From NCBI GenBank assembly GCA_964631415.1, contig CAZVZC010000001.1, positions 4,638 to 68,637 of the forward strand: a stretch of 64,000 nucleotides of DNA. The letters are read 5' to 3'. Shown piece after piece: positions 16,913-49,995 of this stretch; the stretch's first letter is position 1, and the number at the start of each line of letters is the position of its first letter. A program made the translations under genes and the position numbers. The notes under the pieces are model-generated. The model saw only the letters and a list, made by a program, of their open reading frames with translations, was not told the origin of the DNA and did not search any database. This DNA is from an uncultured archaeon (GTDB lineage Archaea > Asgardarchaeota > Thorarchaeia > Thorarchaeales > Thorarchaeaceae).

Positions 16913-18007
16913 ATGCTGCGGCTTGATAACATGTTCAAAATCTGTACGGCCGTGATTACGCTCATGGTTGTCTTTTCGTGTCTAGAATCAACCGCAAGCG
17001 CTCAGGCCCCCCTTGATCCAGTCGTTATCCTATACGATGCCTCTCACGGACCACAGTTTGCAGCGGATGACGCCGACAAGGGGCTCAAGCTGATGCTTGA
17101 CATGGTCAATGCATCAACAAGATACGTAGTCCGCGTTAACGAGGCTTCTCCTATCAATGACACCATACTGAAGGATGTAGACGTCCTAATCCTTGCGTCT
17201 CCCGACCGGACTTATGAGTTCGCCAAATCGGAAGCTATGTCGGTCGTAGAGATGCTGAACAACGGCAGTTCATTGATGATACTTGGTGATCCCAACATAG
17301 ACTCGAACTCCACGTATTGGGCTGGTGAGCAGCCCTTCCAAGACTTGGGAGACAACATTGCAGTCAACCGCCTCTTGGACCTGCTAAACATCACTGGTGT
17401 TAGGTTCAGTATCAACGCGACCGGCGGGGACAACTTCTGGGCCGACACAATGTTTGACTATGACCGCGCCTTGAACAACACATATCCTTGGGTGATGCGG
17501 CTTGATCCCACGACATGGGACTCAAGTCATCCTATCTTCAAAGACATCAACGAACTGATTCTGATGACCGCTACCCTAAAGCCAGTGTCCCTAGTGAGTT
17601 CGATTGCACGAGGTGCGAAGACCTCATTTGCTCAGTTTAGAAAGGGTCCTAACACGTTCGCTAACATATCCTTCCCAAACATGAGCCTGACCGAGTTTGA
17701 CGAACGCCCACTCTCTTATTCAGCAATCAACGGCACACTCCCACCGTGGCTCTCAGCCTTTGAGTACAACAACAGCAGGATTGTGATATCGGGCTCCACA
17801 ATCATGTTCACAGGGCGTCTTCTTGATATGTATAATGCCGAGCTCAAATGGTTCTATGCGGCAGACAATTCCCGGCTCTTTATGAACATGCTGAGCTGGC
17901 TTTCCGAGGACTTCGTAGAAGCCGAAACAGCTGTCGTGCCGATGCTGTTGATCTCGTCCGCGATCCTTGTAATCGGTGTTGTCCTGTATCTAGCCAAGAA
18001 GAGGTAG
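16913..18007 (+). CDS. Type I membrane protein with GIFT/GATase1-like ectodomain (WBP1/OST48- or IFT52-like)
   Basis: Signal peptide, ILYDASHG, DVLILASP, GSSLMILGD, NNSRIVISGS...DNSRLFMNMLSWL, C-terminal TM then KKR; many N-x-S/T sequons. Confidence 0.7.
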   Translation: MLRLDNMFKICTAVITLMVVFSCLESTASAQAPLDPVVILYDASHGPQFAADDADKGLKLMLDMVNASTRYVVRVNEASPINDTILKDVDVLILASPDRTYEFAKSEAMSVVEMLNNGSSLMILGDPNIDSNSTYWAGEQPFQDLGDNIAVNRLLDLLNITGVRFSINATGGDNFWADTMFDYDRALNNTYPWVMRLDPTTWDSSHPIFKDINELILMTATLKPVSLVSSIARGAKTSFAQFRKGPNTFANISFPNMSLTEFDERPLSYSAINGTLPPWLSAFEYNNSRIVISGSTIMFTGRLLDMYNAELKWFYAADNSRLFMNMLSWLSEDFVEAETAVVPMLLISSAILVIGVVLYLAKKR

Positions 18008-18021
18008 AATGCGGAAGACGC

Positions 18022-18636
18022 TCACCAAGTGGGTATCTGTAAGCCCTCCGCCTGTAGAACCCTCTCTATCTCTCCTCTGAGCTCATCGATGTTCGTCCGC
18101 TGCTTAGCTGAGAGAGGGACAATCACCGGGGCAGGTTTCCTCTGCGGAAGCTTGTCATGGAGATACTCAATCTCCACTGCTCTGTTGCCACTCGGCAGCT
18201 TGTCAATCTTGTTAGCGACTACTATGACGTGTTGAGATATCTCAGAAAGGAAGGTATAGAATTCCACATCAATCGGGATTTCTCCCTTGTTCTCCCACCT
18301 CTCGACCAGCTCTCGGAACAGCGAGATGTCTATGATGAGTACCGCCAAGACTAGGCGACTGCTCCAAGCTTCAAGCTTCTGCACGAGTGCAGTCTTTGCT
18401 CGCTCAATGGCCTTCTTCCCCTGTCCAGCCATGTGGCCAAAGCCCGGAGTGTCCACAAAGAGCACGGCTCCGAGATCAATGCTCTTCTCCCATCGTGTGG
18501 TCCCCGGACGCTTGCCCACCTTGAGCTTTCTGCCTGTGAGTGCTCTCATTACACTGCTCTTGCCCACGTTGCTTCGCCCAGCGAATACGACCATGGGTTT
18601 CTGCTTCTCACTCCCAGAATGGTCTTGTTCTAGCAT
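18022..18636 (-). CDS. engB: EngB/YihA-family GTPase
   Basis: GRSNVGKSS, PGTT, DTPGFG, NKID, SAK. Confidence 0.9.
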   Translation of the reverse strand: MLEQDHSGSEKQKPMVVFAGRSNVGKSSVMRALTGRKLKVGKRPGTTRWEKSIDLGAVLFVDTPGFGHMAGQGKKAIERAKTALVQKLEAWSSRLVLAVLIIDISLFRELVERWENKGEIPIDVEFYTFLSEISQHVIVVANKIDKLPSGNRAVEIEYLHDKLPQRKPAPVIVPLSAKQRTNIDELRGEIERVLQAEGLQIPTW

Positions 18637-21448
18637 AGTTCCGCTCCGCCTCTGCAATCTGCCTGAGCAGACTGACTCTGTCTGTCATTCCCGGACGCAA
18701 TATACGAGATGCTGTCATCGGCCCAATTCCGCGTCCGGCTAGTGCTAGTAGGGCAATCCTGCCATACGTTGCCACAAGTTCCGCTGTCAGGACCCCGGCC
18801 GCATAGAGCTTTCTCTTATCATTAGGTACAGCTCCACCGGCTTTGACCAGCTTCATTATTCCCGGGAGCTCTGAGTCATCTGGAGAAACTGCTGCAATCA
18901 TCCTTGATCCACAGCTCGGACAGGACACAGTCTCGTCCAAAGTGGATATCGTCCGAACAGAGTTCCAATCTCCATTGGCCATACACACAAGCCTGAACTG
19001 CTTCGTGAGAAGTCTGGCCTCCATAAGCCGTAGAATCTCGTTCTCATCAGTGATTTCACCCAGCACCTCGAAGCGACTCTTCTCCTCAATTATCAAGCGT
19101 GCAAGTGGCGAGGGTCTATCGGTCACTACAGTATAGACCTCCACAGCTCCAGATGAGATTCGGTCGAACAAATCGACAACCATACTCTCGTCCAGTTTGT
19201 CATGTAGGACCTCTCTCATCGTTTCTTCATAGACAGGCCCGTCCTGAAAGGCATCTATCAGTCGTCTGACAGGGATGTCCTTGACCCTTACGTCTCTTCT
19301 GATCACACCCATTCTACGAGCGACATGAATGAATCGGGAAGCGAATGTCTGGGTGTGTTTCACTGCTAGTCGAAGTATTGTCGAAACCTGATTGCCTGTG
19401 TATCCCTTGAGTGTATCAACAACGCGGGTCGAGTCAAGCCGTGCCGTCGAAGTCAAGAGAATTCGATAAGGGTCTCTCTCAACACCTACATCCACCCCAA
19501 TGCTCGTTGTCAGTAGAGCCGCCACAACAATACCGAGGGCTTCATTCGCCTTAGTACCGAACGGGGTATGAATGACCAAACCCGCCCCGAAGTCCTCGAC
19601 CAAGACAGTGTCCACGGACGGCAGCCTACCCAATGACTCATGGCTTTCCGCCAAGGTTCGAATCACGTAGTCTTGTGTTGTTTCATCTATCCCGTAATGA
19701 GTCTGCAGCCAAGTCCGGGCGTCTGCACCCGGCCTCCTCATTATGGAGTCCCAGAGCTTGGCAACCTCAGATGCAACTTCATACGGGACCGGAATCATCT
19801 CACCAATCCAATGTGGTGCTTCAGTATCAATACTGCTTGCTGGTGAACAGAGGACTTCATCCTCATCCACACTCACAACAGTCCACGACTTACCCCTTAT
19901 GACAAGCAGCGAGCCGCCTTGCAGATTCTCCGTGACGTAGTCCTCGTCTAATACACCTATGGATGTCCTTGTAGTCATGTCGAGGGCGTTCAATTGTCTG
20001 ACATCTGGAATTGTGCTCAGGTGTTCGTAGTAGAAGACCCGTGTCCTCCTGCTAGCCGAAACCTTGGAGCTCTCCACGCGTACAATTCCTCTCTCCGCCA
20101 TGAAGTTCAACACTGAGCCGAGTTCCTCGTCCGTCACCCCGACGAACGGGTACGCTCCGCGTATCAATGCTGTGAGGTCCTTGCGGTCTATCTGACGCAT
20201 GTCGACAACAATCCCGGCTATCTGATGACATAGGACATCCCAAGCCTTCTCGTGTATGCTTGCATCCTCGACCTTGTTCGACAGGGCACGTCTGAGTATC
20301 ACTGCCGACTCAGTCACGTCATCGAGATTTACAGTTGCCAAGAACACCCCCTCCGCGATTCTGTCGAGCCCATGCCCGGCGCGCCCAGTACGCTGTAAGG
20401 CGCGGGCCACTTCTCGAGGGGACGAATACTGGACAACCAAGTCTGCCTGCCCAATATCTATGCCAAGTTCCAGACTTGATGTAGCGATGATGGCCCTTGA
20501 GAGCCCCTGCTTCAAACGAGTTTCAGCAGCCATTCGAGTGTCCTTTGATAGTGACCCATGGTGGACGTCGAACTCAAATGGAGGTTTGAGAGCATGCATC
20601 TTGGCGCCAAGAGCCTCCGCGAACGACCTAGTGTTAGTGAACACTATCGTCGAGTTATGTGATTGCACTAGGTCAACGATTCTTCGAAGCCTCGCTGTGG
20701 AGTTCACGGGATAGGAAATCCGCTTGGAAGTTACAATGTCTTCAGTCGTGGGTTGTGGCATCTCCACCCTCAGGTTCATTTTTCGTAGTCCATACCCCTC
20801 CCACAGAATCCTTGTTTGACCCAATACCCCGCTCAGAAGGGCTACAACGGTCCTTGGGTTTCCGACGGTCGCAGAAAGCCCTATTCGTTGTACTCGCGAC
20901 CCCACGACTTGGTCCAGTCGTTCGAGGCCTAGACTGAGCTGGGTTCCCCTCTTACTGTCGGCCAGTTCGTGTATTTCATCGACAACCACGGCAAACACAG
21001 TCTTAAGGTGATATCTGAGCCTCTGCGCCGGGAGGATTGCCTGAAGCGACTCAGGTGTAGTTATCAACAGGTGGGGTGGAGTGATTGCCTGCTGCCTTCG
21101 CACATACTGTGTTGTATCACCATGTCGGACAGCTACTGTGAAACCCAAGTGGTCACAGAGGGCTTCTATCCGTCCGAACACATCACGGTTGAGCGCTCTC
21201 AGCGGCGTTATGTACAGGATGTGAATCCCAAACAGGTCCTGTTTCAGCCGTTTCTCCTCAAGGAGTTTCAATAGCGGTAAGAGGGCCGCTTCAGTCTTGC
21301 CGCTGCCAGTGGGGGCAAGCAAGAGCATATTGCTCCGCTCAGCCAGTATTGTGGGAATTGCTCTCTCTTGGATCGGCGTGGGCGTCTGGATGCCCCGGGT
21401 TGACAGGAATCCAGAGATCTCCGGACCTAGAGAATCAAAGACATTCAT
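18608..21448 (-). CDS. lhr: Lhr-family SF2 helicase (archaeal Lhr with C-terminal Cys-rich domain)
   Basis: APTGSGKT, TPLRALN, DEIH, SAT, HHGS, TSSLELGIDIG, QRTGRAGH, STIPD. Confidence 0.93.
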   Translation of the reverse strand: MNVFDSLGPEISGFLSTRGIQTPTPIQERAIPTILAERSNMLLLAPTGSGKTEAALLPLLKLLEEKRLKQDLFGIHILYITPLRALNRDVFGRIEALCDHLGFTVAVRHGDTTQYVRRQQAITPPHLLITTPESLQAILPAQRLRYHLKTVFAVVVDEIHELADSKRGTQLSLGLERLDQVVGSRVQRIGLSATVGNPRTVVALLSGVLGQTRILWEGYGLRKMNLRVEMPQPTTEDIVTSKRISYPVNSTARLRRIVDLVQSHNSTIVFTNTRSFAEALGAKMHALKPPFEFDVHHGSLSKDTRMAAETRLKQGLSRAIIATSSLELGIDIGQADLVVQYSSPREVARALQRTGRAGHGLDRIAEGVFLATVNLDDVTESAVILRRALSNKVEDASIHEKAWDVLCHQIAGIVVDMRQIDRKDLTALIRGAYPFVGVTDEELGSVLNFMAERGIVRVESSKVSASRRTRVFYYEHLSTIPDVRQLNALDMTTRTSIGVLDEDYVTENLQGGSLLVIRGKSWTVVSVDEDEVLCSPASSIDTEAPHWIGEMIPVPYEVASEVAKLWDSIMRRPGADARTWLQTHYGIDETTQDYVIRTLAESHESLGRLPSVDTVLVEDFGAGLVIHTPFGTKANEALGIVVAALLTTSIGVDVGVERDPYRILLTSTARLDSTRVVDTLKGYTGNQVSTILRLAVKHTQTFASRFIHVARRMGVIRRDVRVKDIPVRRLIDAFQDGPVYEETMREVLHDKLDESMVVDLFDRISSGAVEVYTVVTDRPSPLARLIIEEKSRFEVLGEITDENEILRLMEARLLTKQFRLVCMANGDWNSVRTISTLDETVSCPSCGSRMIAAVSPDDSELPGIMKLVKAGGAVPNDKRKLYAAGVLTAELVATYGRIALLALAGRGIGPMTASRILRPGMTDRVSLLRQIAEAERNYARTRPFWE

Positions 21449-21684
21449 CCAAAGGGCTTCCTTTGTCGAAGTGTGTGACGAATCTCGTTCACTAGGATGC
21501 GGATGTCAGTTCTAAGCGTGACATCTGCCTCACGCGCTCTGTCTTCAAGCAGTTCTATGGCCTCATTTGGAGAGGAGGCTTGCTTCATTATTCTCTCGAC
21601 CAATGACTGCATCACATCTAGGTTCGATATGTGTGGTGCAGACCTCTCAAATGCCTGTTGGATTAATGCCTCTAAGTTCATCAT
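21445..21684 (-). CDS. Small helical hypothetical protein coupled to lhr
   Basis: 79 aa; ATGA overlap with the lhr start. Confidence 0.7.
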   Translation of the reverse strand: MMNLEALIQQAFERSAPHISNLDVMQSLVERIMKQASSPNEAIELLEDRAREADVTLRTDIRILVNEIRHTLRQRKPFG

Positions 21685-21704
21685 GAGGTTGTTTCAGACG
21701 TGCC

Positions 21705-21815
21705 CTACTCTTCCTCTTCCTCACCGTATGCGACGTAGCCCAATACAAGGAGAAGGGCCACAATTCCCAACACATACAAGACGATGTCGATGACTGGGAT
21801 TATGCTTGTCTGCAT
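21705..21815 (-). CDS. 36-aa single-TM microprotein (Ost4-like?)
   Basis: MQTSIIPVIDIVLYVLGIVALLLVLGYVAYGEEEEE*; fills the intergenic gap; TATA about 29 nt upstream. Confidence 0.65.
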   Translation of the reverse strand: MQTSIIPVIDIVLYVLGIVALLLVLGYVAYGEEEEE

Positions 21816-21843
21816 AGGTATCTGACGACCCCGTCTGAATGTC

Positions 21844-21851
21844 ACTTATAA
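21844..21851 (-). promoter_or_regulatory. TATA box of the microprotein-hypothetical-lhr-engB unit
   Basis: TTATAAGT positioned for a nearly leaderless transcript starting near 21820. Confidence 0.5.
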
Positions 21852-21882
21852 TCATTGCTGACTGAAGGGCTCTGTACTAAGA

Positions 21883-22134
21883 CTACTCCTCTGTCTTGCT
21901 GCCTTCATAGAACCGGTCGATGAAACTGCCATAGACGTCCACAGGCTCGGTGAGCGAATTGACTTCGTCGATAGTCATCTCAAGTCCGCAGGAGCCACAC
22001 TTGACCGTTGCCACTTTTTTCTCCCTGAGCAGCTCTATCTTGATTGCCGCATTACCACAGTCTGGACATTGATAGACATCAGGGATTCGCTTCTGCGGTC
22101 GTCGTCGAATCTTCTGCCTTCTTCTTCTTCCCAT
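21883..22134 (-). CDS. elf1: Transcription elongation factor Elf1
   Basis: MGRRRR basic tail, CPDC...CGSC, EPVDVYGSFID. Confidence 0.92.
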   Translation of the reverse strand: MGRRRRQKIRRRPQKRIPDVYQCPDCGNAAIKIELLREKKVATVKCGSCGLEMTIDEVNSLTEPVDVYGSFIDRFYEGSKTEE

Positions 22135-22291
22135 GATTCCTCACCTTTGCCTATTTCACACAGACCGAGCTACTAGGCACGGAGAAACAGAGCGAGTCCG
22201 GCCTCTGCTGAGATTCATTTAAGCGTTGCGTTGAGTCTTGATGAGTTCTGGTTCGAAGGCTTCTTATCGCAGTTGCCATGCGACATGACCG

Positions 22292-22525
22292 ATGTCTGCA
22301 TTGTCAAGGAATGCCGAGTGTGTACTGCAGATACTACAGTCTGCAGATACCCTGACAACATCCGAGATACTTGAGATGGCACGGAGAGCCGAGTACGCTG
22401 AGATGTGTAAGGACTGCGCAGGCGGCGACACCTTTGTTGCCGCAGCCAACCAGCTTGTTGAACAGGGGCTTATCACCAAGAAGCTGGGTAAAGGCGGATA
22501 CCACTGGCGAATCGTGAGGGGATGA
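22292..22525 (+). CDS. Small winged-helix-like protein with CxxC
   Basis: VLQILQ...LTTSEIL...CKDC...AANQLVEQGLITKKLGKGGYHW. Confidence 0.7.
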   Translation: MSALSRNAECVLQILQSADTLTTSEILEMARRAEYAEMCKDCAGGDTFVAAANQLVEQGLITKKLGKGGYHWRIVRG

Positions 22526-22529
22526 GAAA

Positions 22530-23792
22530 ACGGACACGGAGTACTGGGCGCGGATCAGGGATGACTTCCCTGTTCTCAAACGCACGGTCAATGGTCATCC
22601 ACTAGTCTACCTAGATAGTGCGTGCATGGCACTGAAACCCCGTCAGGTCATCGACGCAATGAACGAGTATTATGAGCAATATCCTGCCTGTGCGGGCCGC
22701 AGCATCCACAAGTTGGGACAAGAGGCCTCAGGCGCCTATTCAAGAGCTAGGGAGAAGATCGCTCGATTCATCAACGCCAGCGAGCCAAGCGAGTGTATCT
22801 GGACGCGAAATGCAACAGAGTCGCTCAACATAGTTGCGAGTGGTCTCAAGATTCCTAGGGGCTCCAAGATTGTGACGACGAGCCTAGAACACCACAGTAG
22901 CTCTCTTCCGTTTGTAGAAAGGGCAAGAAGAAGCCGTATGAGGATCGAGGTTGTCAGGGCGCACGATGACGGGACTTTCGACATTGAAGACTGGAAGAAG
23001 GCTATTGACAGCAATACGAGAATTGTTTCTATTGCGCACTCTTCAAACGTCACAGGTACTATCACTCCACTCAGGGACATAGTCGAGATTGCACACGATC
23101 GAGGTGCGTTGGTTGTGTCAGACGACGCCCAGTATGCTCCGCATCACCCACTTGATGTGCAGGACCTCGATGTTGACTTCTCAGCTATCTCAGTACACAA
23201 AATGTGTGGCCCAACAGGAATGGGCGTTCTCTATGGGAGAATGGAACTGCTAGAGTCAATGAGCATGTTCCTAGTCGGCGGCGATACCGTCAGCGATGTG
23301 AGGTTTGAGAATGGTCGTATACTGCCTCACTATCTGCCGCCACCAGCAAAGTTTGAGGCTGGACTGCAGAACTATGCAGGTGCTATCGGCGCCGGCGCGG
23401 CTGCAGAATACCTACAATCGATTGGCATGATTGAGGTCGAGAAGCGAGAGCGGGAGCTCTTGGCAATTATGCTCAAGGGCCTGAAGGAACTGGGGCATGT
23501 CCATGTGCTTGGGCCTGAAGACGTCAACCTTCGGAGTGGACTCGCAGCATTCTTTGTGGACACAGTCACATCAGCACACGACATCGCATCTTTCTTGAGC
23601 GACGAGTATGGAGTGATGATAAGGAGCGGGGTCCATTGTGCAGGACCTTTTCACTACCAGCTGGGAATCCCACCCGCGAGGGGGACTGCACGGGCTTCAA
23701 TATACATCTATAACAACGAAGCAGAAATCGGTAGACTCCTAGAAGGTCTTCATGCACTCATTGTTACAAGTTCAGGGAAAGAAACTCACTGA
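22530..23792 (+). CDS. sufS: Class II cysteine desulfurase (SufS-like); start non-standard
   Basis: IRDDFPVL...VYLDSA lies upstream of the ORF-track ATG 22626; SVHKMCGP (PLP Lys), RSGVHCA (catalytic Cys). Confidence 0.88.
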   Translation, partial: TDTEYWARIRDDFPVLKRTVNGHPLVYLDSACMALKPRQVIDAMNEYYEQYPACAGRSIHKLGQEASGAYSRAREKIARFINASEPSECIWTRNATESLNIVASGLKIPRGSKIVTTSLEHHSSSLPFVERARRSRMRIEVVRAHDDGTFDIEDWKKAIDSNTRIVSIAHSSNVTGTITPLRDIVEIAHDRGALVVSDDAQYAPHHPLDVQDLDVDFSAISVHKMCGPTGMGVLYGRMELLESMSMFLVGGDTVSDVRFENGRILPHYLPPPAKFEAGLQNYAGAIGAGAAAEYLQSIGMIEVEKRERELLAIMLKGLKELGHVHVLGPEDVNLRSGLAAFFVDTVTSAHDIASFLSDEYGVMIRSGVHCAGPFHYQLGIPPARGTARASIYIYNNEAEIGRLLEGLHALIVTSSGKETH

Positions 23793-23846
23793 GAACGCGA
23801 GACTTGAGCGTGAGCTGGTGTGGGGCCTTTTGCTCGTTGGCTGCAT

Positions 23847-25640
23847 TCAGCCCACAAGTTTGGTGACACTCTCTCTTAGGCGCTTGACCTCTTCTATCGG
23901 GTCCACGAGAATCAACTCGTTGGCCGATATCTGTAATGTTTCTCTGAATTTCGCCACACGCCCACGCACTGCAACATACCTCCCAAGCACTTTGTCGGAG
24001 TTCTTTTCAATTGGCAGTGTCTTGTTACCGGACTTGGCTATCAGTTCTTGAGCCTCTTGGGCTGTCATCTGGAGAAGGTCCTCTCCGGTCTTTCCGAAAA
24101 GTGTTACTTGTATCGACCCCGATCCATCATCAATAGTCACTTTGTACAACATACGGTACTCAGGTTTCTCAACTTTGCCGCAGTTCACACAGAAGTACTT
24201 TCCCTCTTTCTCCTCAGTTTTCTTCCTACACTTCGGACATGAGGCATAGACTGGACTTGTACGGGAAGGCACAACAATGATACCACAGACCTCAACGGTC
24301 TTCCCCTCCGCAGCATCATCGATCTCACTTATCATGACTCTCCCTGCTTGGATGGCAGGTCTTACTGCTATCTCGGAAAGGTCAAGCTGATCAAGGTGCG
24401 TGTCACTTGGATTGATCTTCATGTCTGACCGACGTCCAGCATGATACTCAACTCCGCCGCGGAAACCCTCCTTCACGTAGCCGTGCTGTATCCGGATGAC
24501 ATCTCCCTCTTGCAGGTCTTTTACCTTCTCAACATCCTCATTCCAGAACGTGACACGGACTGTTCCTGACTCGTCACCAATCACTATGTTCTGAACCTTG
24601 CCTTGTTTTCCTTCTCTCTCAAAAGATGTGGGCGGGAAGACTTTGGCAACTTTGCCCTCTATGTCGACGTCTCTCATCTCCACAGACAGGTCCACAATGC
24701 TCTTTCTACCCAGAGCCTCAACCACGGACTTGGCTCCCGCCGCCTTTGCAGGAGCTCTTGCAGCAGATATCTTCTGCTTTACGCCTCTCTCTATCTTGGT
24801 ACTTCTCCCGGCATGGACCTCAACCTCGCCGTTCCGCCCTGTCTTCGTATAGGCCCCACTGAGTCTTATGACTTCTCCTGGCTTTGCGTCTTTCATCTGT
24901 TCCGCATACTGATCCCAGAAGACAACCCTGACGCTACCTGTATCATCGGTCATTGTAGCACTTGCAACCTTCCCCTCTGCACCGTCAGACTTCCGAGTGA
25001 ATGTAGATATACCATAGAGCGCGTCTAGTCGCACAGTCAGGGTCACATCAAACATTTTGTCCTGAAGGTCCGCTATCTGGGCGCTCTTTGACTCAGCAGT
25101 CTTGATGTCTAGGTCCTCTGCCTCGTATTCGTCTAGTACCCTAATTCCTCCCATTCTGCCTAAGTTCAACTCAAGAGCATCTCTTAGTCCCTTCTTCACA
25201 TATGCTCCTCTGATTTGGACCACGGCCCCCAAAGTTATCGGGCCCTCCTCAATAGCATCTGCCATTTCATCCCAGAGGGCGACTCTAATCTGGCCAGTTT
25301 CGTCGGCCACGATGATGCTCGCCACTTTTCCTTCACCCCCGCTAGGCTTCGAGAAGGTTCGCAAGGCTCCAACATTGACAACCTTAGCAGTGAGCGTTAC
25401 GCTTCTACTGCTCTCGGTTATGTCCTCTACCCTCATTCGCGCATTAGGTGAAACCTGCTGCAGGTCAATCCCAAGCTCTCGGGCGACAATCATTGCAGCT
25501 GACTCCTCGTTGACGACCTCTGGGCCAAGTTCCTGACGCTTCTCGTCAATGAGCCTCAGAATGCCCTTGCGGTCGTATTCCGATGAATGCTTCAGAATCA
25601 GCTCAATGGTTTCTTCGAGTGTAAGCACAGTCAATTCCAT
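23847..25640 (-). CDS. rpa: Replication protein A large subunit (multiple OB folds and Zn finger)
   Basis: Repeated DETGQIRVALW/DDTGSVRVVFW/DESGTVRVTFW/DDGSG OB motifs; CPKC...CVNC. Confidence 0.92.
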   Translation of the reverse strand: MELTVLTLEETIELILKHSSEYDRKGILRLIDEKRQELGPEVVNEESAAMIVARELGIDLQQVSPNARMRVEDITESSRSVTLTAKVVNVGALRTFSKPSGGEGKVASIIVADETGQIRVALWDEMADAIEEGPITLGAVVQIRGAYVKKGLRDALELNLGRMGGIRVLDEYEAEDLDIKTAESKSAQIADLQDKMFDVTLTVRLDALYGISTFTRKSDGAEGKVASATMTDDTGSVRVVFWDQYAEQMKDAKPGEVIRLSGAYTKTGRNGEVEVHAGRSTKIERGVKQKISAARAPAKAAGAKSVVEALGRKSIVDLSVEMRDVDIEGKVAKVFPPTSFEREGKQGKVQNIVIGDESGTVRVTFWNEDVEKVKDLQEGDVIRIQHGYVKEGFRGGVEYHAGRRSDMKINPSDTHLDQLDLSEIAVRPAIQAGRVMISEIDDAAEGKTVEVCGIIVVPSRTSPVYASCPKCRKKTEEKEGKYFCVNCGKVEKPEYRMLYKVTIDDGSGSIQVTLFGKTGEDLLQMTAQEAQELIAKSGNKTLPIEKNSDKVLGRYVAVRGRVAKFRETLQISANELILVDPIEEVKRLRESVTKLVG

Positions 25641-25788
25641 CCTGATATTGAGCGCCAGATGCAGAATAGTCTTTTTGCACGCCTTTAAAGGGCTCTTCTC
25701 AGAATGTGAGGTTCCTCTGATAGCTGGCATCGCAGGAGCTTAGCGAAAACACAAAAAGCCAACGCTCGGTGGCAATCGATGATATCCA

Positions 25789-29337: not shown

Positions 29338-29365
29338 AACCACCCGATTGCAGAGTCCTTTCCTC

Positions 29366-30241: not shown

Positions 30242-30436
30242 TGTTGGAGCAACTCCGGTATGGAATAGAAGGCTGCTGGTTCCTTGCACACATGCCACAC
30301 AGACTCTTGTAGTGGCATCTGGACCGGAACAAGACTAAGGCCCGGTGTTACCTTTTATGTCTATCTTTTGGAGGGCGTAACAATCTGATGACTTGCATCA
30401 TGCTTCTGTGTATGTCATACCCGGTTGATACCCGTG

Positions 30437-31739: not shown

Positions 31740-31793
31740 TACTATTGTTTCGCACCAGATGAGTCATAAGCATAACGGGGGAATGGCTGACCA

Positions 31794-34489: not shown

Positions 34490-34630
34490 GGGAATCGGGT
34501 TCCAGTGATTGGCCGACGACTGATAATGATGTTGTTTTGCTGTTGCCAGAAGCCCGGCAGAGGAGCTGTATTGGGAGCCATTCGGCATTGATTTATCGTT
34601 GACAGGCCGTCCATCTAGTCGGGACTACGA

Positions 34631-34975
34631 ATGGAATCAGGTGAGATTCAGGACTTTGAGAGCGAAACAGAGCGAGTTCGATTGAGATTACGCGTCATGC
34701 GTCTTGAGAATGGGCTCCTCATTCTGATCTCAGACTCAGAGAGGTTTCGCTTGGGTCTCTCGGCTGTGGCAATTCCGGCAGGGTCCGGTCGACAGGAACC
34801 TAGTTCCACAGGGTTCTTGTCCGTCGGAGAAGACGTAGTACAGGTGCGCATCCTAGCTGAGACTGTTGCAAAACGTACAGGCCAAATGTGCATGGTGGTA
34901 GCCGCAGTCAAGGAGCTAAACCGTACACTCATGATGGACATCACTAGGACTCTGAGGGAGCATGTCCCGAAGTGA
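34631..34975 (+). CDS. Proteasome assembly chaperone 4 (PAC4/PSMG4)-like protein
   Basis: RVMRLENGLLILI...LGLSAVAIP...SSTGFL...LAETVAKRTGQMCMV resembles the PSMG4 pattern (from memory). Confidence 0.65.
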   Translation: MESGEIQDFESETERVRLRLRVMRLENGLLILISDSERFRLGLSAVAIPAGSGRQEPSSTGFLSVGEDVVQVRILAETVAKRTGQMCMVVAAVKELNRTLMMDITRTLREHVPK

Positions 34976-35174
34976 CATAGTCAATCACATCTTGAACCCA
35001 CGTCCCGAGTCCTTCGACACGGCGTAGTGAGGCGAGGTAGTCGGCCCAATCGATTTCAAGCGCTTTCTTCCACTTGTCAAATGCAGAATATAGTCCGTCA
35101 AGGGCTTTTCGGTGATATCTACATAGCTCACTGCCATTTGCTGATTCACGACCGCAGAGCGGGCAGTCTGTCAG
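34944..35174 (-). CDS. 76-aa Zn-finger (CxxC...CxxH) protein downstream of topA, CTG start
   Basis: (L/M)TDCPLCGRES...LCRYHRKA...WKKALEIDWADYL...GTWVQDVIDY; GGAGGTGA 6 nt before CTG, which overlaps the topA stop. Confidence 0.8.
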   Translation of the reverse strand: MTDCPLCGRESANGSELCRYHRKALDGLYSAFDKWKKALEIDWADYLASLRRVEGLGTWVQDVIDYVTSGHAPSES

Positions 35175-37306: not shown

Positions 37307-37454
37307 TTCTGTTCGCCTCTGGTTCTCTCATTGCCATCGGTGTTCGTATGTTTTTAACAATGACTCCATGCCAAGACTACGCCATAGTACAGGCCTCCAT
37401 CTCACGATATTTTTAAAAGCGGACCTCCCGACCTCGCTCGTTGAGGTTTGCCTT

Positions 37455-37868
37455 TTGCCTGTATGGTGGCCGCGATTCATAATTAAGCCCCAAGTACGAC
37501 TCACGAGGCCCCGGTTTGGAATGCCCGCGCGTCCTCCTGACATAGTCCTCTTTGGAGGACTGTTGCTGGCCATCCTGTTTATTATGGGTGGCAACATATA
37601 CACGTTAGTCAAGACTCCGCCTGCGATTGCTGGTGACTCATCAGGAAACCCAATCCTTATTGCACCAGGCATTGATATTCAGCTTGGACTAGAAGGAATT
37701 GTGGCCTCGGTTGTCATTTTCATTGGAACCATTGGTATTGGTCTCGTCTATCTGTCCTCAAAGTATGTCTTCCAGCCTGGCTATGCAACACGCCTGATGG
37801 TTCTCGGTGCAATACTTGCAGGTGGCGCATTCTTAGTCATAAGCTACCTCTATGGTCTTAAGACATAG
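37455..37868 (+). CDS. OSTC/DC2-like (OST3/OST6 family) oligosaccharyltransferase subunit
   Basis: Three TMs; MGGNIYTLVKTPP...QLGLEGIVAS...IG pattern; GAGGT before TTG 37455. Confidence 0.75.
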   Translation: MPVWWPRFIIKPQVRLTRPRFGMPARPPDIVLFGGLLLAILFIMGGNIYTLVKTPPAIAGDSSGNPILIAPGIDIQLGLEGIVASVVIFIGTIGIGLVYLSSKYVFQPGYATRLMVLGAILAGGAFLVISYLYGLKT

Positions 37869-37955
37869 GGCACAAGACTTGTTTGTAGAACGTGCCATCG
37901 GTGCTCCGGTCTGACATAATACAATGAACAAGAGGAATTACCCCTCCCAAGTCAC

Positions 37956-38669
37956 TCATCTGAGCTGGGCATAGGGTACATCAGTTGCTGCAAGCAGAGC
38001 CGAAACGAGTTCTCTGGCTATCTCAAGTTTGATTCTCTTTCTTTCGTCAGCCTGATAATGAAACGCCTTGTCTGGTTTTGACCAGCGTCCAACCATGGTT
38101 CCGAAGTCCATTCCGGCCAGGACAATGCGTCTTGGCACGTAGTGCAATGCGATGTGGCATGCCCTATCTCCGTCAGTGAACCCACCCCATAGAAACGCTC
38201 TGTCAGTAGGCTCTACTTGAGTGCTCCCGAGTGCTTCCCTCAGCGTGGGAACGAACTGCTTGACTCTGTCCATGTTGTCGCCGTGGGCGTGTACTATTGG
38301 CAATGCTCCGTTCTCCACGATACGTTTCAGATCCCCACTGTTTCCGTCGAGGTCTGTCACAAGCACATCACAGTTCTGGTCCTGTTCCAAGAATGCAGTG
38401 GCTGCACCATCAGCAGCGACATAGACGGCATCCTGGAGCTCTGGCATCCGCATGGTTTCTCTAAGATGTCGTTCGAGAGAGGGCCCCGCCCCACACACAA
38501 CAACTGCGTGGTCATGGATTCGGCTTCTGAGCCGTGATAGAATCGGAGCGGGGTCTATGTTTCTGAGTAATGACGTGAGCAGGGCAGTTGCATTTCTGTC
38601 AGCTTCAACATTCAGCGCCAGCCTTCTGACTATGTCAAGATAGACTGGCTGCCAAACATGCCACTCCAT
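37956..38669 (-). CDS. mptE: 6-hydroxymethyl-7,8-dihydropterin diphosphokinase (MptE, DUF115)
   Basis: GAGPSL, AADGA, VTDLDG, HAHGDN, GGFTDGDRA, GMDF. Confidence 0.9.
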   Translation of the reverse strand: MEWHVWQPVYLDIVRRLALNVEADRNATALLTSLLRNIDPAPILSRLRSRIHDHAVVVCGAGPSLERHLRETMRMPELQDAVYVAADGAATAFLEQDQNCDVLVTDLDGNSGDLKRIVENGALPIVHAHGDNMDRVKQFVPTLREALGSTQVEPTDRAFLWGGFTDGDRACHIALHYVPRRIVLAGMDFGTMVGRWSKPDKAFHYQADERKRIKLEIARELVSALLAATDVPYAQLR

Positions 38670-38675
38670 GACGAA

Positions 38676-39890
38676 TCACCCGACTTGGAGATTGCGGTCG
38701 GCCATTAGCGACTGTATTGCATTGCCGATGTCTATGAGCCCGAAGTACTGCATCGTAGAGAGCCTCTTTGTCATTCTTCCAAGCTGAAGAGGTGTCCCCA
38801 TTATTAGGACGTCTGTGCTATCAATGCGATGATCTATAACATCGTGATGATAGGCCGCATCTCCTCCGACTGCAAGCATCTCCTGCTTGATTATGAGTGC
38901 TGCAGGGGTCGAAACTTCTCTGATTCGGAAGTTGAGCATCACTGCTTTCCCGGCCAACGGTTGGATGATCTCAGCACCTGCACCCAATTGCTCGATCACG
39001 AGTGCGGCCTCTCTCTCGTTGGACAGACTCACCAGCTCAACATTGTCCTTTGTCACCACAGGGGGGTGTTTCAGGGCCTGTCCAACTATCGCTGCCATAC
39101 GAGCCTCCTGCACATCGTGTGCACGGATTATGTCTGCACCGTTTACGACTGCCACCGATGTGGCAGCAATCGTGCCAGTGATACGCATGGACGGATCGGG
39201 CTGGTCAAGCAGCTGACCTATGAACGCCTTTCTCGATATTCCCACAAGGAGTGGACGTCCCAACAATGTGAATCGTCTGAGGTTTCTGACAATCGACAGG
39301 TCCACAGCAGCAGGCTTTCCGAAGCCAATACCTGGGTCTACGACAATCTGCTCTTGCCCAACACCCACATCGATTGCAGTCTTCATGCTCGTTCTGAGCG
39401 CATCCATTGTCGCATTCAGATCTGAGCACGGTTGTCCACAGTCCGCCATCAATATGATTGGCACATCTGCGTCTGCAATCAGCTTTCCCATTTTGCTGTC
39501 CATACGAAGTCCCGAAACATCATTGACGAGGGAAGCGCCAAGATTCAGTGCCGTACGTGCAACAGCAGCAGATGTGGTATCGATGGATACCGGAAGATGT
39601 GTGTTTTCGACGACAGTTGCGAATGCTTCCGAAACTCTTGTCAGCTCCTGATTTGCATCGACCTTGGTCGTACCATAGATGCTCTTTGGCGCCGTGGAAG
39701 CGCCACCCACGTCGATGATGTCTGCGCCTTCTCGTTCCATCTTTTGGACTAACTTTATCACATCATCCCTTGTGGTCGCCACGGATCCGCCATAGAACGA
39801 CTCAGGAGAGAGATTAATCACACCCATGACTCTGGTTGGATTGTCGCGTCCGACCCTGAGTCCACGGATGTCGGTTTCGTAAAGGCCCAT
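38676..39890 (-). CDS. folP: Dihydropteroate synthase with extra C-terminal domain
   Basis: MGVINLSPESF, DVGG, SIDT, NDVSG, DPGIGFGK, SRK, RAHDV. Confidence 0.92.
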   Translation of the reverse strand: MGLYETDIRGLRVGRDNPTRVMGVINLSPESFYGGSVATTRDDVIKLVQKMEREGADIIDVGGASTAPKSIYGTTKVDANQELTRVSEAFATVVENTHLPVSIDTTSAAVARTALNLGASLVNDVSGLRMDSKMGKLIADADVPIILMADCGQPCSDLNATMDALRTSMKTAIDVGVGQEQIVVDPGIGFGKPAAVDLSIVRNLRRFTLLGRPLLVGISRKAFIGQLLDQPDPSMRITGTIAATSVAVVNGADIIRAHDVQEARMAAIVGQALKHPPVVTKDNVELVSLSNEREAALVIEQLGAGAEIIQPLAGKAVMLNFRIREVSTPAALIIKQEMLAVGGDAAYHHDVIDHRIDSTDVLIMGTPLQLGRMTKRLSTMQYFGLIDIGNAIQSLMADRNLQVG

Positions 39891-39978
39891 GACTGGCTTT
39901 CCTCGGCTAGCCGATAGTATGGAAGAAGATAAAACCTAGAGGATGCGACAACCCGAACACCTGACGCGGTGAACGGTG

Positions 39979-41124
39979 ATGAGCGAAAGTCTAGGTAGAA
40001 CACACCTCTACGAATGGCACAAGTTGCACGGTGATGTTATCCCCTTCGCAGGTTGGGAGATGCCCGTTCGATACACGGACATCCGTGAGGAGCATATGGC
40101 TGTGAGAAGGGCGGTTGGGATATTCGATACTACACACATGTTTCGCTTTCTCATAAGCGGTCCTCAAGCAGCTGAATTCCTGCAGACACTCACTACAAAC
40201 AGCGTTTCCAAACTGGAAATCAATGAAGGGCATTACTCAACGTGTCTCAATGATAAGGCCGGGATTCATGACGATCTCATGATTTACAGAATTGGTGAGC
40301 AGAAGTACATCTGGATAACTAATGCCTCCAATGGTCCCAAAATCAAGGCTCACCTTACAACACATGCTAAGCGGTTCAAGGTTAGCGTTGAGGATAAGTC
40401 AAAGGACATTGTCATGATAGCAGTACAGGGACCAAAGGCCTTGGCTTTGCTGTCAAAGATGGCTGGCGAAGGCCTCAGGAAGTTCGCCCGGTTCAGCTGC
40501 AATCCTGTGAAGTTTGCAGGGCGCGACTGCTACCTATGTCGTACGGGTTACACCGGAGAAGAAGGCGGAGAAATCCTACTACTAGATACGCCGTTCAACG
40601 AGGCTGGAAAGAAGAAGGCCATCTCCTTCTGGGACGAGATACTCAAACAGGGGAAGGACCTAGATGTAAAGCCTTGTGGGCTCGGTGCTAGAGACTCGAC
40701 AAGACTTGAGGCTGGATTCGTACTATACGGGCACGAGCTAAATGAGGAAACTACTCCACTTGAGGCTCGGATTTCGTATGCAGTCAAGTTCAAGGTCGAA
40801 CCGCATTACATAGGCTATGATGCACTGCTGAAACAGAAGCAGGAAGGTGTCACTAGGGCACGCATTGGACTGTTGATGATAGACAAAGGTGTCCCCCGCG
40901 AGCAATACCCCGTCATGCTTGGCAACCGGCAGATAGGGGCCGTGACAAGTGGCGGTATGTCGCCCGTGCTCGACTGTGGCATCGCATTGGCCTACGTCAA
41001 ACCCGATGCCGTGAAGGAAGGTGACACCGTTGAAGTGGACATAAAGGGACGACTACGAAAGGCCCGAGTGACTGGCTGGCCGTTCTACAATCCTGACGAG
41101 TACGGCGAGAACAGGACCCGTTGA
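39979..41124 (+). CDS. gcvT: Glycine cleavage system T protein
   Basis: FAGWEMPVRY, FDTTHM, RTGYTGE, GLGARDSTRLEAG. Confidence 0.95.
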   Translation: MSESLGRTHLYEWHKLHGDVIPFAGWEMPVRYTDIREEHMAVRRAVGIFDTTHMFRFLISGPQAAEFLQTLTTNSVSKLEINEGHYSTCLNDKAGIHDDLMIYRIGEQKYIWITNASNGPKIKAHLTTHAKRFKVSVEDKSKDIVMIAVQGPKALALLSKMAGEGLRKFARFSCNPVKFAGRDCYLCRTGYTGEEGGEILLLDTPFNEAGKKKAISFWDEILKQGKDLDVKPCGLGARDSTRLEAGFVLYGHELNEETTPLEARISYAVKFKVEPHYIGYDALLKQKQEGVTRARIGLLMIDKGVPREQYPVMLGNRQIGAVTSGGMSPVLDCGIALAYVKPDAVKEGDTVEVDIKGRLRKARVTGWPFYNPDEYGENRTR

Positions 41125-41182
41125 TACACAAATTGATTTAAAGGGGCCTCGTTCCCACAGCAGAAACAGAAGGTGTGCGTAG

Positions 41183-41593
41183 ATGTCGAAAGGCACTTCC
41201 AAGGGTACCAAAGTTGTCGATGGTCTATACTACACGAAGGAACACGAATGGGCTAAGGTTGAGGGCGACCTAGTAGTCGTTGGAATCACCGACTATGCTC
41301 AGCACGCTCTTCACGAGATCACCTTTGTTGAGATCATGCAGTCCGGCACGACTCTGAAGGCCGGTGAGGAATGTGGTCTCGTCGAGTCGATGAAGGCTTC
41401 ATCCGATGTCTTCTCGCCAGTTTCTGGTCAGATAGTTGAGGTCAACACATCGCTAGAAGATGCCCCCGAAACTGTGAACGAGGACCCGTACGGAAAGGGT
41501 TGGATGTACAAAATACGCCCCTCGAATCTCAAGGTGGATTTGAAGAAGCTCATGGACAGCAAGACCTATGCCTCCTTTGCCGCCTCCAAGTGA
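41183..41593 (+). CDS. gcvH: Glycine cleavage system H protein
   Basis: YTKEHEW, GITDYAQ, lipoyl-Lys ESMKA, NEDPYGKGW. Confidence 0.95.
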   Translation: MSKGTSKGTKVVDGLYYTKEHEWAKVEGDLVVVGITDYAQHALHEITFVEIMQSGTTLKAGEECGLVESMKASSDVFSPVSGQIVEVNTSLEDAPETVNEDPYGKGWMYKIRPSNLKVDLKKLMDSKTYASFAASK

Positions 41594-41819
41594 AACCTGA
41601 TGTGGAAGTTGGCGCGGCATCAGCGGAGAGAGTCTGCTTTCCGAGGTTCAAGACTCGGTGGCTCATTGGATTTTTGAGTGTTGAGTGAAGAGTCTTACAG
41701 TCGTTTCCAAGTTGTTGTGCACGTGACCAAGACGGTACAATCGATTTACGAACAGCAACCTTTTTAGCGCATCCAAGAATCGCTCGGCCGGATGCGACCT
41801 TAATCGGAGACATCACTCT

Positions 41820-44612
41820 ATGCCGAGCCTGAGTCACTTCAAGAGATCCGCTAGCAGGTTTCTTCGTCAAGTCTTTCACAAACCAAAAGCAAAGATATCT
41901 CGAGGGTCGGTCCTTCTGGTCGTTGCTCTTTGTATCACAGTTATTGCTGCTATAGCGGTTCGTCTAGAGCCGCTGCTCGACTCACAACCGATTGTCCATG
42001 AGTTTGACTCGTGGTATCAGCTAAGAGTGACTCAGTATGTTGCTGCAAATGGTTATGCTGCATTCTTCAGCTGGTATGACCACATGAGTTGGGTGCCCTT
42101 CGGTCGTGACATAGCACTCTCAACCTACATTGGTGTGCCGTTCACAGCCGCCACATTCTACTTCCTTCTTAATGGAATAGGTATCAGTGTAGATTTGCTT
42201 GTTGTCTGCATCATGATGGCTGGGTTCATGGGCGGCTTCGCGACACTGGCCACATTCTTCTTGGGCAAGGAGTTGTCGAACAAGACAGTTGGACTCCTGA
42301 GTGCTCTCTTCGTGGCATTCATGCCTGCATATATCCAGAGGACAACAGCCGGCTTTTTTGACAACGAGTCTGTAGGTGTCTTTGCCATTGTGCTTGCTCT
42401 CTTGTTTTTCATGCGTTCTCTAAAGACCGGTTCTCTGCCTTCTGCAGTCGCTGCAGGCTTATCCTTGGGCTATTTACAACTGTCTTGGGGAGCAGCAGAC
42501 TTTCTTACGGACCTGCTTGCTCTCTATGCGCTCTTCATGTTAGTCGCAGGTCGTTATAGCCGTCGTCTTCTTTCAAGCTACCTGATCACAGTGAGTCTCG
42601 GCTTCTTCATTGCTAATCTGCTTCCTCGTAACAGTCTCCTAAGCTCAGGAGCGCTCACTTCTCTCACATTCCTTGCTCCGGTAGGGATGGGTGTCTTGCT
42701 TGCAGCTTATGAGGTCTGGCTGCGAGTTTCAAAGTATCGCGAGGCGACAGCAGGTGCACTGGCTCCTCACATGAAGCCAATCTTGCTTGGGATGATTGCT
42801 CCAGTCGTTGGCGTGACTGCCTACTTCGTGTATGCAGCCAGTCAAGGCCTGCAAATCATAACAACGAGTTCTAACCCCATAACTTTCGTTGGCGGCAAAT
42901 TCCTTGCTGTCATCAATCCCTTCTACCGACTTGACCAGCGTATCTTTGCATCCGTTGCTGAACATCTCCCTGCTCCTTGGGCGAGTTTCTATCAGACACT
43001 GATTGTGCTGATATTCTTCTTCCCGGTAGGTATGTACTTCCTGTTCAAGAGGGGTCGCGATGAAGACTGGTTGGTCGTCCTGTTCGGAGCCACTGCTGTA
43101 TACTTCACGGGCAGCATGATTCGACTGGGTCTGATTCTGGCACCAGCAGTTGCACTGCTTGCTGCTGTCGCCGTGAATGGTGTCCTGACACCATTCGCAA
43201 AGGTTGTTTCTCAGAAGTCGGTCTTCGAACGTCGCAGGTTTCGAATCAGCTCGTCCCTTACTTCAGAACACACAATTGCTGTGTTCGCATTCATAGGACT
43301 GCTGCTCTCGGTCAATGTCTATCTGGGTGTCCAGTACGCCGTCAGCGTAGGTGCTCCCGAGTTCGCGCCCTCAAAGCTCACCGACACGACGCAGTTCCTT
43401 GACTGGCAGACCGCAATGACATACGTCCGCAATGTTGTTCCTAAGTCGGCAACAATAGCCAGCTGGTGGGACTATGGATACTGGATAACGTGTGCCGGAG
43501 GGGGACGGTCGGTTGTGGACAATGCTACCTTCAATGCCACACAAATAGCTCTTGTGGGCTATGCCCTGATGGCTCTCAATCTCACTGAGTCGCTCAGAAC
43601 CTTCAGGCTGTGGAATGCAACACATGTGCTGGTCTACTGGGGGCACGAGATTTCGTCATTTGGCGGGGACGAGGGGAAGTGGCCTTGGATGGTCCGCATA
43701 GCTGAAGACTATCTCGGATCGTCAGTCATAGACGACGCCACATATCTGGGGGACAATCCCACGACCACGACAACAATCGAAACCGATTACACCCTGGCTG
43801 GTTTCTATTCCTCGACCCTGTACAAACTGTTATCATATGGTGAGCCACTGACCGAAACCGAAGCTGACGAGTTGGGTCTACCTAGTTTAAGGAAAGGGAT
43901 TGACTTCTACACGCCTTCAGGATACTCTTATCCAATCAGTTATGCGGGTGACACGGCATGGACTTCTCATATGCCCACCGACCTACATGGGGCATTCAAG
44001 GGTCCCTACTACAGCTCAGATTATGGTTTGGTCAAGATCTACGAAATTGACTACACCATGTATGAGCAGTACCTCAATAGGACCGCATCTCAGTGGGCCC
44101 CCAAGGTGGGCTCCTTGACAGGTGTCAAAGCTAACGGCAATCTCTCTGCCAGTGAGAAGGCCTTCCAGAGCTTCGATGGTATTCTTGGAGGCGGCTATGA
44201 TGCCAAAGTCTATGTACAAGCCAACTCCACACACATGTACTTTGGTCTTGAGATGGACGATTACCAAGTCGGCAGTGACGCCTTTGGCATACAGATTGCG
44301 CCACTCGGCCCGGTCACGACATCAGACCTCCGCATAGTGAACTACGCAGGCCATCAGTTCTATGACGGTCACATTGACTACAACGGTGATTGGACCTTCG
44401 ACTCAAGCGGAGCTAATGCAACGTTGTTTGGAACAGCGGAGAATGTCACAGAGCTGATATTTCCGCTCAACTCTCTCGATTCTCAGGATTTGGACCTGAA
44501 ACCGGGAATGAACTATCAGATACGATTGCTGTTCTGGGACAACGTTGATTCAGGGGAACCAACACTTGTGACCGAGTGGCAGACCATCTGGGTACCGGTG
44601 AGCTTGTACTGA
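41820..44612 (+). CDS. aglB: Oligosaccharyltransferase catalytic subunit AglB/STT3 with extra C-terminal beta-sandwich
   Basis: HEFD, DNE, SVAEH, WWDYG, GDEGKWPWMVRI; multiple TMs. Confidence 0.94.
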   Translation: MPSLSHFKRSASRFLRQVFHKPKAKISRGSVLLVVALCITVIAAIAVRLEPLLDSQPIVHEFDSWYQLRVTQYVAANGYAAFFSWYDHMSWVPFGRDIALSTYIGVPFTAATFYFLLNGIGISVDLLVVCIMMAGFMGGFATLATFFLGKELSNKTVGLLSALFVAFMPAYIQRTTAGFFDNESVGVFAIVLALLFFMRSLKTGSLPSAVAAGLSLGYLQLSWGAADFLTDLLALYALFMLVAGRYSRRLLSSYLITVSLGFFIANLLPRNSLLSSGALTSLTFLAPVGMGVLLAAYEVWLRVSKYREATAGALAPHMKPILLGMIAPVVGVTAYFVYAASQGLQIITTSSNPITFVGGKFLAVINPFYRLDQRIFASVAEHLPAPWASFYQTLIVLIFFFPVGMYFLFKRGRDEDWLVVLFGATAVYFTGSMIRLGLILAPAVALLAAVAVNGVLTPFAKVVSQKSVFERRRFRISSSLTSEHTIAVFAFIGLLLSVNVYLGVQYAVSVGAPEFAPSKLTDTTQFLDWQTAMTYVRNVVPKSATIASWWDYGYWITCAGGGRSVVDNATFNATQIALVGYALMALNLTESLRTFRLWNATHVLVYWGHEISSFGGDEGKWPWMVRIAEDYLGSSVIDDATYLGDNPTTTTTIETDYTLAGFYSSTLYKLLSYGEPLTETEADELGLPSLRKGIDFYTPSGYSYPISYAGDTAWTSHMPTDLHGAFKGPYYSSDYGLVKIYEIDYTMYEQYLNRTASQWAPKVGSLTGVKANGNLSASEKAFQSFDGILGGGYDAKVYVQANSTHMYFGLEMDDYQVGSDAFGIQIAPLGPVTTSDLRIVNYAGHQFYDGHIDYNGDWTFDSSGANATLFGTAENVTELIFPLNSLDSQDLDLKPGMNYQIRLLFWDNVDSGEPTLVTEWQTIWVPVSLY

Positions 44613-46470: not shown

Positions 46471-46650
46471 CTACAGAATATGAGCTAAGATGGTAGCAAC
46501 CACAAGGATGGATGCGAATACGACGACGACAGTCGGGCCTATCTTCACACCTGGTGTTTCGTCTTCAAAGAACCTGATCAGCCCTGCACCACCAGAGGGC
46601 ATCGGTCCCTCGCCCTTCTTGCTCTTGCGCTTCTTGGCGGTCTTCGGCAT
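46471..46650 (-). CDS. secG: Preprotein translocase subunit Sec61beta
   Basis: MPKTAKKRKSKKGEGPMPSGGAGLIRFFEDETPGVKIGP then TM; 59 aa, absent from the ORF track. Confidence 0.92.
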   Translation of the reverse strand: MPKTAKKRKSKKGEGPMPSGGAGLIRFFEDETPGVKIGPTVVVVFASILVVATILAHIL

Positions 46651-49908: not shown

Positions 49909-49995
49909 CTGGCAGGCTCCTTTGGTTCGATTTCCAGACATCAGCTTAATCTGTCTAGCTCTCAGCATGTTTGAATCACCAAGAGGGCGCATGGC

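Follow-up and report, generated by a model that had tools for sequence, protein, structure and literature searches.

Genes for the probable core of a eukaryote-type oligosaccharyltransferase, with a DC2/OSTC-like partner, in a Thorarchaeaceae genome

The closest known systems to the one considered here are human oligosaccharyltransferase A (OST-A), in which STT3A, OST4 and DC2 are docked on Sec61 (structures 6S7O and 8B6L), and yeast subcomplex II, which consists of Stt3, Ost4 and Ost3/6 (6EZN and 6C26). We describe related genes in a 64,000-nucleotide stretch of DNA from an uncultured archaeon of the Thorarchaeaceae (contig CAZVZC010000001.1, positions 4,638 to 68,637, assembly GCA_964631415.1), which we refer to as the window. 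Close homologues of the proteins in the window are labelled Thorarchaeota in their sources, which makes the organism an Asgard archaeon; no relatives of eukaryotes closer than the Asgard archaea are known. The origin of a multi-subunit, translocon-docked oligosaccharyltransferase (OST) from a single-subunit enzyme bears on the start of the secretory pathway of the endoplasmic reticulum (ER). We consider it probable that the window encodes the core of a eukaryote-type OST with a DC2/OSTC-like partner, that further partners are encoded elsewhere in the genome, and that the genes are scattered.

Parts of this toolkit have been reported before. Eme et al. 2023 found STT3, Ost3/6 and Ost1 to be widespread in Asgard archaea and Ost4 and Ost5 to be present in most classes, with Wbp1, Swp1 and Ost2 confined to Heimdallarchaeia (PMC10307638). 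Carilo et al. 2024 described OST accessory subunits in MK-D1 (PMC11417166). The Asgard OST sets of these two studies represent the same toolkit as the one seen here and, as Asgard OST subunits were published in 2017 and 2023, the window adds nothing new in principle.

The source genome amounts to 2.16 Mb in 81 contigs and is 85% complete. We compared it with a survey sample of 201 Asgard genomes, in which the Thorarchaeaceae are called the Thor family below. Gene identities, family placements, conservation and gene order are direct observations on these genomes. Profile searches of the PDB covered 177,635 sequences, with E-values up to 10 for the DC2-like family profile. Pfam matches were read against the curated cut-offs, which are 27 bits for PF04756 (OST3_OST6), 36 for PF03345 (OST48_N), 27 for PF03911 (Sec61_beta), 25 for PF04597 (Ribophorin_I) and 27.4 for PF05251 (Ost5). 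An original prediction, made from the letters of the sequence, had named five genes in this stretch as possible OST or translocon parts; all five lie there, and each has been located with coordinates and a family scan. Three of them are listed first:

41820-44612, plus strand: STT3, the catalytic OST subunit, 930 amino acids (PF02516, E = 1.9e-52)
37455-37868, plus strand: DC2/OSTC-like protein, the membrane module of the OST3/OST6 family, 137 amino acids, three helices, without a thioredoxin domain
46471-46650, minus strand: Sec61beta/SecG-type translocon subunit, 59 amino acids (PF03911, E = 9.4e-14, 51.6 bits)

A scan of the whole genome finds a single copy of STT3. The protein has an N-terminal membrane domain, an acidic first-loop motif (HEFD60), an SVSE-type motif of external loop 5 (SVAEH378), WWDYG549 and a DK motif (DEGKWPWMVRI617). 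Among all solved structures, its best relatives are human STT3A (1.7e-85), human STT3B (1.9e-74) and yeast Stt3 (2.3e-72). Archaeal AglB fragments match at about 1e-5 only, and these matches are confined to the C-terminal domain. The original prediction had called the motifs of this STT3 eukaryote-style, and the label is correct because STT3A, STT3B and yeast Stt3 far outscore AglB. One difference from OST-A lies at the C-terminus, where about 200 additional residues (approximately 730-930; window 44000-44612) extend past the part that can be aligned with eukaryotic STT3. This extension carries several N-x-S/T sequons, and a Pfam scan of it returned no match.

The DC2-like gene sits inside a longer open reading frame (ORF; 37368-37868, plus strand) and starts with TTG at 37455, just behind a GAGGT. 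The N-terminal WWPRFIVKPRVRLTRPRF segment of its product is conserved in homologues, and an alignment of 26 of these gives the basic consensus M-x-P-W-W-P-R-F-I-V-K-P-R-V-R-L-T-R-P-R-F. This conservation indicates that the TTG at 37455 is the true start and that the product has 137 amino acids. The protein scores 35.4 bits with PF04756, above the cut-off, and covers only positions 186-288 of the 294 in that profile, i.e. the last three helices of Ost3/6. Short and lacking a thioredoxin domain, it has the make-up of OSTC/DC2, which is about 150 amino acids long. A profile of the 26 homologues matches only OSTC/DC2 in the PDB (6s7o_H, 1.8e-6), where residues 12-136 align with 15-142 of 149, which is essentially full length; the chains of Ost3, Ost6, TUSC3 and MagT1 were not matched at E-values up to 10. 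The three-helix protein had been predicted to be OSTC/DC2-like, and the family and structure searches agree. The Sec61beta that had been placed just beyond is likewise a member of its family, with the hydrophobic C-terminus of a tail-anchored protein.

How general is this arrangement? An OST3_OST6 match is present in 184 of the 201 Asgard genomes. Among the matches listed, those to the membrane part (profile positions of about 165-294) almost all fall in short frames of about 140-210 amino acids, and matches to the N-terminal part lie in short genes of their own. On the evidence of these frames, the membrane-only, DC2-like form appears to be the usual form of OST3/6 in Asgard archaea. An Asgard "OST3/6" has been known since 2017, as quoted in PMC10307638 and PMC11417166, and in the open literature we found no paper describing it as DC2-like. 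This sharpens one point: Ost3/6 of Asgard archaea is a DC2-like membrane module, of the type by which OST-A is attached to Sec61.

Two further genes in the same genome are candidate partners:

L064:1504-4461 (C1:149429-152383), about 81 kb past the end of the window: Ost1/ribophorin-I-like FKBP fusion, 985 amino acids
L007:1471-1668 (C23): Ost5/TMEM258 candidate, 65 amino acids with two hydrophobic segments (PF05251, 23 bits, E = 9.9e-5)

A direct scan of the genome with Ribophorin_I gave no match. In other Thor genomes Ribophorin_I matches lie inside proteins of about 990 amino acids, and the source genome has a 51%-identical copy, the first of the two genes above. When this protein is scanned whole, only FKBP_C and Big_7 are reported; a scan restricted to residues 401-799 gives Ribophorin_I 30.6 bits, above the cut-off of 25. 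In Thor genomes the Ost1-like domain is part of a large FKBP fusion and goes unnoticed when whole proteins are scanned. In the copy of the source genome a signal peptide comes first, a helix lies near residue 793, and a helical, Lys/Glu-rich tail of about 170 amino acids follows, which is the layout of ribophorin I, a type I protein with a cytosolic tail. The fused domains are an FKBP prolyl isomerase, a Big_7 Ig-like domain and the Ost1-like domain, and the protein carries 19 sequons. Neither DAD1/Ost2 nor KCP2 is matched in the 85%-complete genome at E-values up to 1. Swp1/ribophorin II gave no match at E-values up to 10, and this blank is weak because every control genome is equally blank. 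The genome search that had been proposed for ribophorin I, OST5 and DAD1 has thus yielded an Ost1-like domain, a weak Ost5 candidate and no DAD1.

In comparison with OST-A, the likeness lies in the STT3 motif set with STT3A as its best match, in a three-helix partner that aligns with DC2 over its full length and in the presence of Sec61beta. Besides the longer STT3, the differences are that KCP2, DAD1 and ribophorin II were not found in the source genome and that the equivalent of Ost4 is a candidate only. This candidate and a GIFT-domain protein are the remaining two genes that had been named:

16913-18007, plus strand: GIFT-domain type I membrane glycoprotein, 364 amino acids (ABC_transp_aux/GIFT, 2.3e-8)
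21705-21815, minus strand: single-helix microprotein with an acidic EEEEE tail, 36 amino acids, from a hydrophobic short ORF

In the GIFT protein a signal peptide is followed by one ectodomain, a helix that starts at about residue 335-341 and a KKR end. It holds 11 N-x-S/T sequons, the asparagine at several of which is invariant in 25 Thor homologues, and its identity across Thorarchaeota is 55-71%. Wbp1 has a GIFT-domain fold (PMC7226087), and the protein has this fold in common with Wbp1/OST48, as it does the type I topology and the basic tail on the cytosolic side. The OST48_N profile matches it with 11.9 bits (E = 0.136), far from the cut-off of 36. A Thor-only profile gives a weak match to IFT52 in the PDB and nothing else; OST48 chains are not matched. 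A full-library profile search recovers 285 relatives, the closest named ones being from Baldr-, Hermod-, Odin-, Hel-, Loki- and Hodarchaeota. A profile built from 85 of these as representatives matches IFT52 at 4e-13 and OST48 at 8e-11, with IFT52 scores ranging from 2.6e-13 to 4.3e-13 across the family profiles. Among the same 85 representatives, Pfam assigns ABC_transp_aux to 54, IFT52_GIFT to 53 and OST48_N to 23.

The first AlphaFold2 model of the GIFT protein, built from 25 close homologues, reached a predicted local distance difference test score (pLDDT) of 58 and was discarded; the second, built from 109 sequences, reached a pLDDT of 86 and a predicted template modelling score of 0.85. 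A Foldseek search with the latter places the N-domain of IFT52 (1.6e-8) and human OST48 (6s7t_G, 1.8e-8) jointly on top, so that the protein has a GIFT-domain fold that is no closer to OST48 than to IFT52. The proteins compare as follows. The GIFT protein and Wbp1/OST48 both have a signal peptide, a GIFT domain on the extracytoplasmic side, and one C-terminal helix that is followed by a short basic tail. A segment of the pattern R-[VI]-x-x-S-G-S...F...N..L...W, found in Wbp1/OST48, is also seen in the GIFT protein, and IFT52 has this segment too. IFT52 and bacterial GldG (ABC_transp_aux) are the top sequence and fold matches of the GIFT protein; however, IFT52 is a cytosolic protein and GldG carries helices at either end, whereas the GIFT protein, like OST48, is secreted and held in the membrane by one helix at its C-terminus.

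Does this make it the Wbp1 of the Thor family? OST48_N exceeds its cut-off in five of the 201 Asgard genomes, in frames of about 430-590 amino acids, and in none of the Thor family, which agrees with the published distribution of Wbp1. The Thor GIFT profile matches 161 of the 201, and the family it defines, a GIFT domain plus helix, is not described in PMC10307638 or PMC11417166. Four genomes (G038, G140, G100 and G145) carry both kinds of gene, with OST48_N and the Thor GIFT profile picking out different genes as their best match. Of the seven Wbp1-type proteins matched by OST48_N, the Thor GIFT profile misses four, even when the database is tiny. A tree of 28 proteins, built by maximum likelihood, puts the seven Wbp1-type proteins on one side of a branch with 98% support from the Shimodaira–Hasegawa-like approximate likelihood ratio test (SH-aLRT), and the GIFT protein of the window clusters with the Thor-like paralogues of those same Wbp1-bearing genomes. 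In the Thor-like proteins the helix follows directly after the GIFT domain, whereas the Wbp1-type proteins have about 100 more lumenal residues. At 364 amino acids, against 431-460 for the Pfam-positive Asgard Wbp1 proteins, the GIFT protein is missing the second (middle) lumenal domain of OST48. On the co-existing paralogues in four genomes and the split in the tree, we reject orthology with Wbp1/OST48. We conclude that the GIFT protein is a member of a widespread Asgard sister family that is paralogous to Wbp1/OST48. This placement does not support the earlier idea that it is an accessory part of the OST, and the Thor protein should not carry a Wbp1/OST48 annotation. The post-helix tail is merely KKR in the Thor proteins, and many members outside Thor (L041, L046, L048 and others) have long and very basic tails with runs of K/R and up to about 85 amino acids.

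The 36-amino-acid peptide is conserved. In a six-frame search, 24 of 24 Thor-family genomes yield a short open frame (39-59 amino acids) with its sequence pattern, a profile recovers the peptide from 43 of 43, and the consensus is MQ-x(3-5)-IP-I-x-x-I-x-L-x-x-L-G-I-V-A-L-L-L-I-L-G-Y-x-x-Y-G-E-E-E-E-E. As the pattern is kept across the Thor family, the gene is real. Its members have 36-38 amino acids and one helix, which is the size of Ost4, a single-helix protein of about 36 amino acids. The Ost4 relation that had been predicted is not detectable in Pfam or in solved structures: 11 members gave no Ost4 match in Pfam at E-values up to 10, Ost4 chains are absent from the PDB results of the peptide profile, a genome scan with Pfam Ost4 did not select the ORF, and a search of a protein atlas with the peptide returned unnamed clusters (best score 0.84) and no link to Ost4. 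These negatives are themselves weak, as the Ost4 profile PF10215 is nearly blind in Asgard genomes, with four weak matches over the 201, none in a plausible short gene. The C-terminus of eukaryotic Ost4 is basic, unlike the acidic tail of the peptide, which has no basic residue. By analogy of size and topology the peptide could be an Ost4 analogue, and we list it as a candidate. An ORF of 79 amino acids (21445-21684, minus strand) that has no family match lies between the peptide gene and the Lhr helicase gene and overlaps the start of the latter by four bases.

The absence of a single operon, and with it the weakness of proximity as evidence, had been pointed out beforehand and is confirmed here. 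Between the candidates, on both strands, lie genes for a GTPase, Lhr helicase, Elf1, SufS, RPA, PolD DP2, RadB, XPD, a PAC4-like protein, TopA, FolP, GcvT/H and eIF2alpha, and these interleaved, unrelated housekeeping genes rule out an operon of the candidate genes. The spacing of the GIFT and DC2-like genes is nevertheless conserved, at 20-28 kb in 28 of 28 Thor-family genomes with both genes among the matches listed. In a second Asgard family it is 2.2-39 kb and in a third 43-48 kb. In the most compact block (L057:6134-9852, on G157:C1) and in genomes of the same family, the DC2-like and Thor-like GIFT genes lie on the same strand 2.2 kb apart, with RadB and NAD synthase between them and RPA just beyond; in the window this block extends over 20 kb. 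Since RPA and RadB share the linkage, the grouping looks like inherited gene order. We read it as such, with room left for a functional cause of the linkage between the GIFT and DC2-like genes.

The solid core of this work is thus a eukaryote-type STT3 with a DC2/OSTC-like partner, together with an Ost1-like gene and possibly an Ost5-like gene elsewhere in the genome. A working model can be built around it, in which every physical association among the candidate parts is one that we infer. A single STT3 would be the catalyst, transferring a lipid-linked glycan to the N-x-S/T sites of proteins that leave the SecY/Sec61 channel; as the archaeon has no ER, the complex would be located in the cell membrane. 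As in human OST-A, the DC2-like protein would pack on the membrane domain of STT3 and may form a bridge to the translocon, of which Sec61beta is a part. The likely partners from outside the window would be the Ost1-like FKBP/Ig-like fusion of 985 amino acids and the two-helix Ost5-like candidate, and the 36-amino-acid membrane microprotein could occupy the position of Ost4. The GIFT protein is a heavily glycosylatable, surface-anchored member of an Asgard-wide family and a paralogue of Wbp1/OST48, and the genes are dispersed in an inherited housekeeping block and not co-transcribed.

Several points weigh against this model. The pairing of STT3 with the DC2-like protein is drawn from homology to human OST-A and is accordingly only a presumed one. 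The ribophorin I match of the FKBP fusion surfaces only when the domain is scanned in isolation, and the Ost5 candidate, at 23 bits, falls below its cut-off of 27.4. With a genome that is only 85% complete, a missing DAD1 or Swp1 is no proof of absence. Finally, the tree that separates the GIFT protein from Wbp1 lacks a root and eukaryotic sequences, and profile scores had been used beforehand to pick its two groups.

Two other explanations need to be weighed against the one we prefer. STT3 might be a solitary enzyme like AglB, with the small membrane proteins and the GIFT protein unrelated to it; the OST3/6-family module might serve in ion transport, for example, and the GIFT protein in glycan binding or envelope structure. 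Most archaeal AglB enzymes do work alone (PMC7226087, Table 1), there is no operon, and the 11 sequons give the GIFT protein the look of an OST substrate. We think this unlikely, however, as AglB is a far more distant match to the STT3 sequence than STT3A, STT3B and yeast Stt3 are, nearly all Asgard archaea have a member of the DC2-like family, which can be aligned from end to end with a subunit that is known solely from OST-A, and the genome also holds Ost1-like and Ost5-like genes. At the opposite extreme, STT3, the DC2-like protein, the GIFT protein as OST48, the peptide as Ost4 and SecYE-beta could all belong to one translocon-docked complex that resembles OST-A. In architecture the parts are like the eukaryotic subunits, including a type I GIFT protein with a basic tail whose wider family matches OST48 both at 8e-11 and in fold, and a peptide with the size and single helix of Ost4; the linkage of the GIFT and DC2-like genes, moreover, persists in three Asgard families. 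Nonetheless, we hold such a complete complex to be quite improbable. The GIFT protein is paralogous to the true Wbp1, without the second domain and with an equal match to IFT52, and the genome gave no match to Ost2 or Swp1, with which Wbp1 forms subcomplex III. The peptide, with its acidic tail and no basic residue, gives no Ost4 signal in Pfam or the PDB, and the linkage is shared by RPA and RadB, hence its look of inherited order.

Our preference therefore stays with an STT3–DC2 core whose further partners are encoded elsewhere. A more speculative extension, to which we attach little credence, is that the GIFT family is an unrecognised archaeal accessory of the OST or translocon, an older sister of Wbp1/OST48 that does the job of Wbp1 in lineages without subcomplex III, such as Thorarchaeia. 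The 36-amino-acid peptide would then be the Ost4 of Thor and the linkage of the GIFT and DC2-like genes, at its closest 2.2 kb in another Asgard family, would have a functional cause in addition to inherited order.

The neighbourhood contains some further genes of note. A GT4-family glycosyltransferase (48682-50013, minus strand; Glycos_transf_1, 1e-40) is encoded 4 kb downstream of STT3 and may take part in glycan assembly. Two genes of the housekeeping block are further eukaryote-signature genes, namely the Elf1 homologue (21883-22134, minus strand; 2.9e-19) and the PAC4-like proteasome chaperone (34631-34975, plus strand), whose PF16093 match of 4.9e-6 is below the cut-off.

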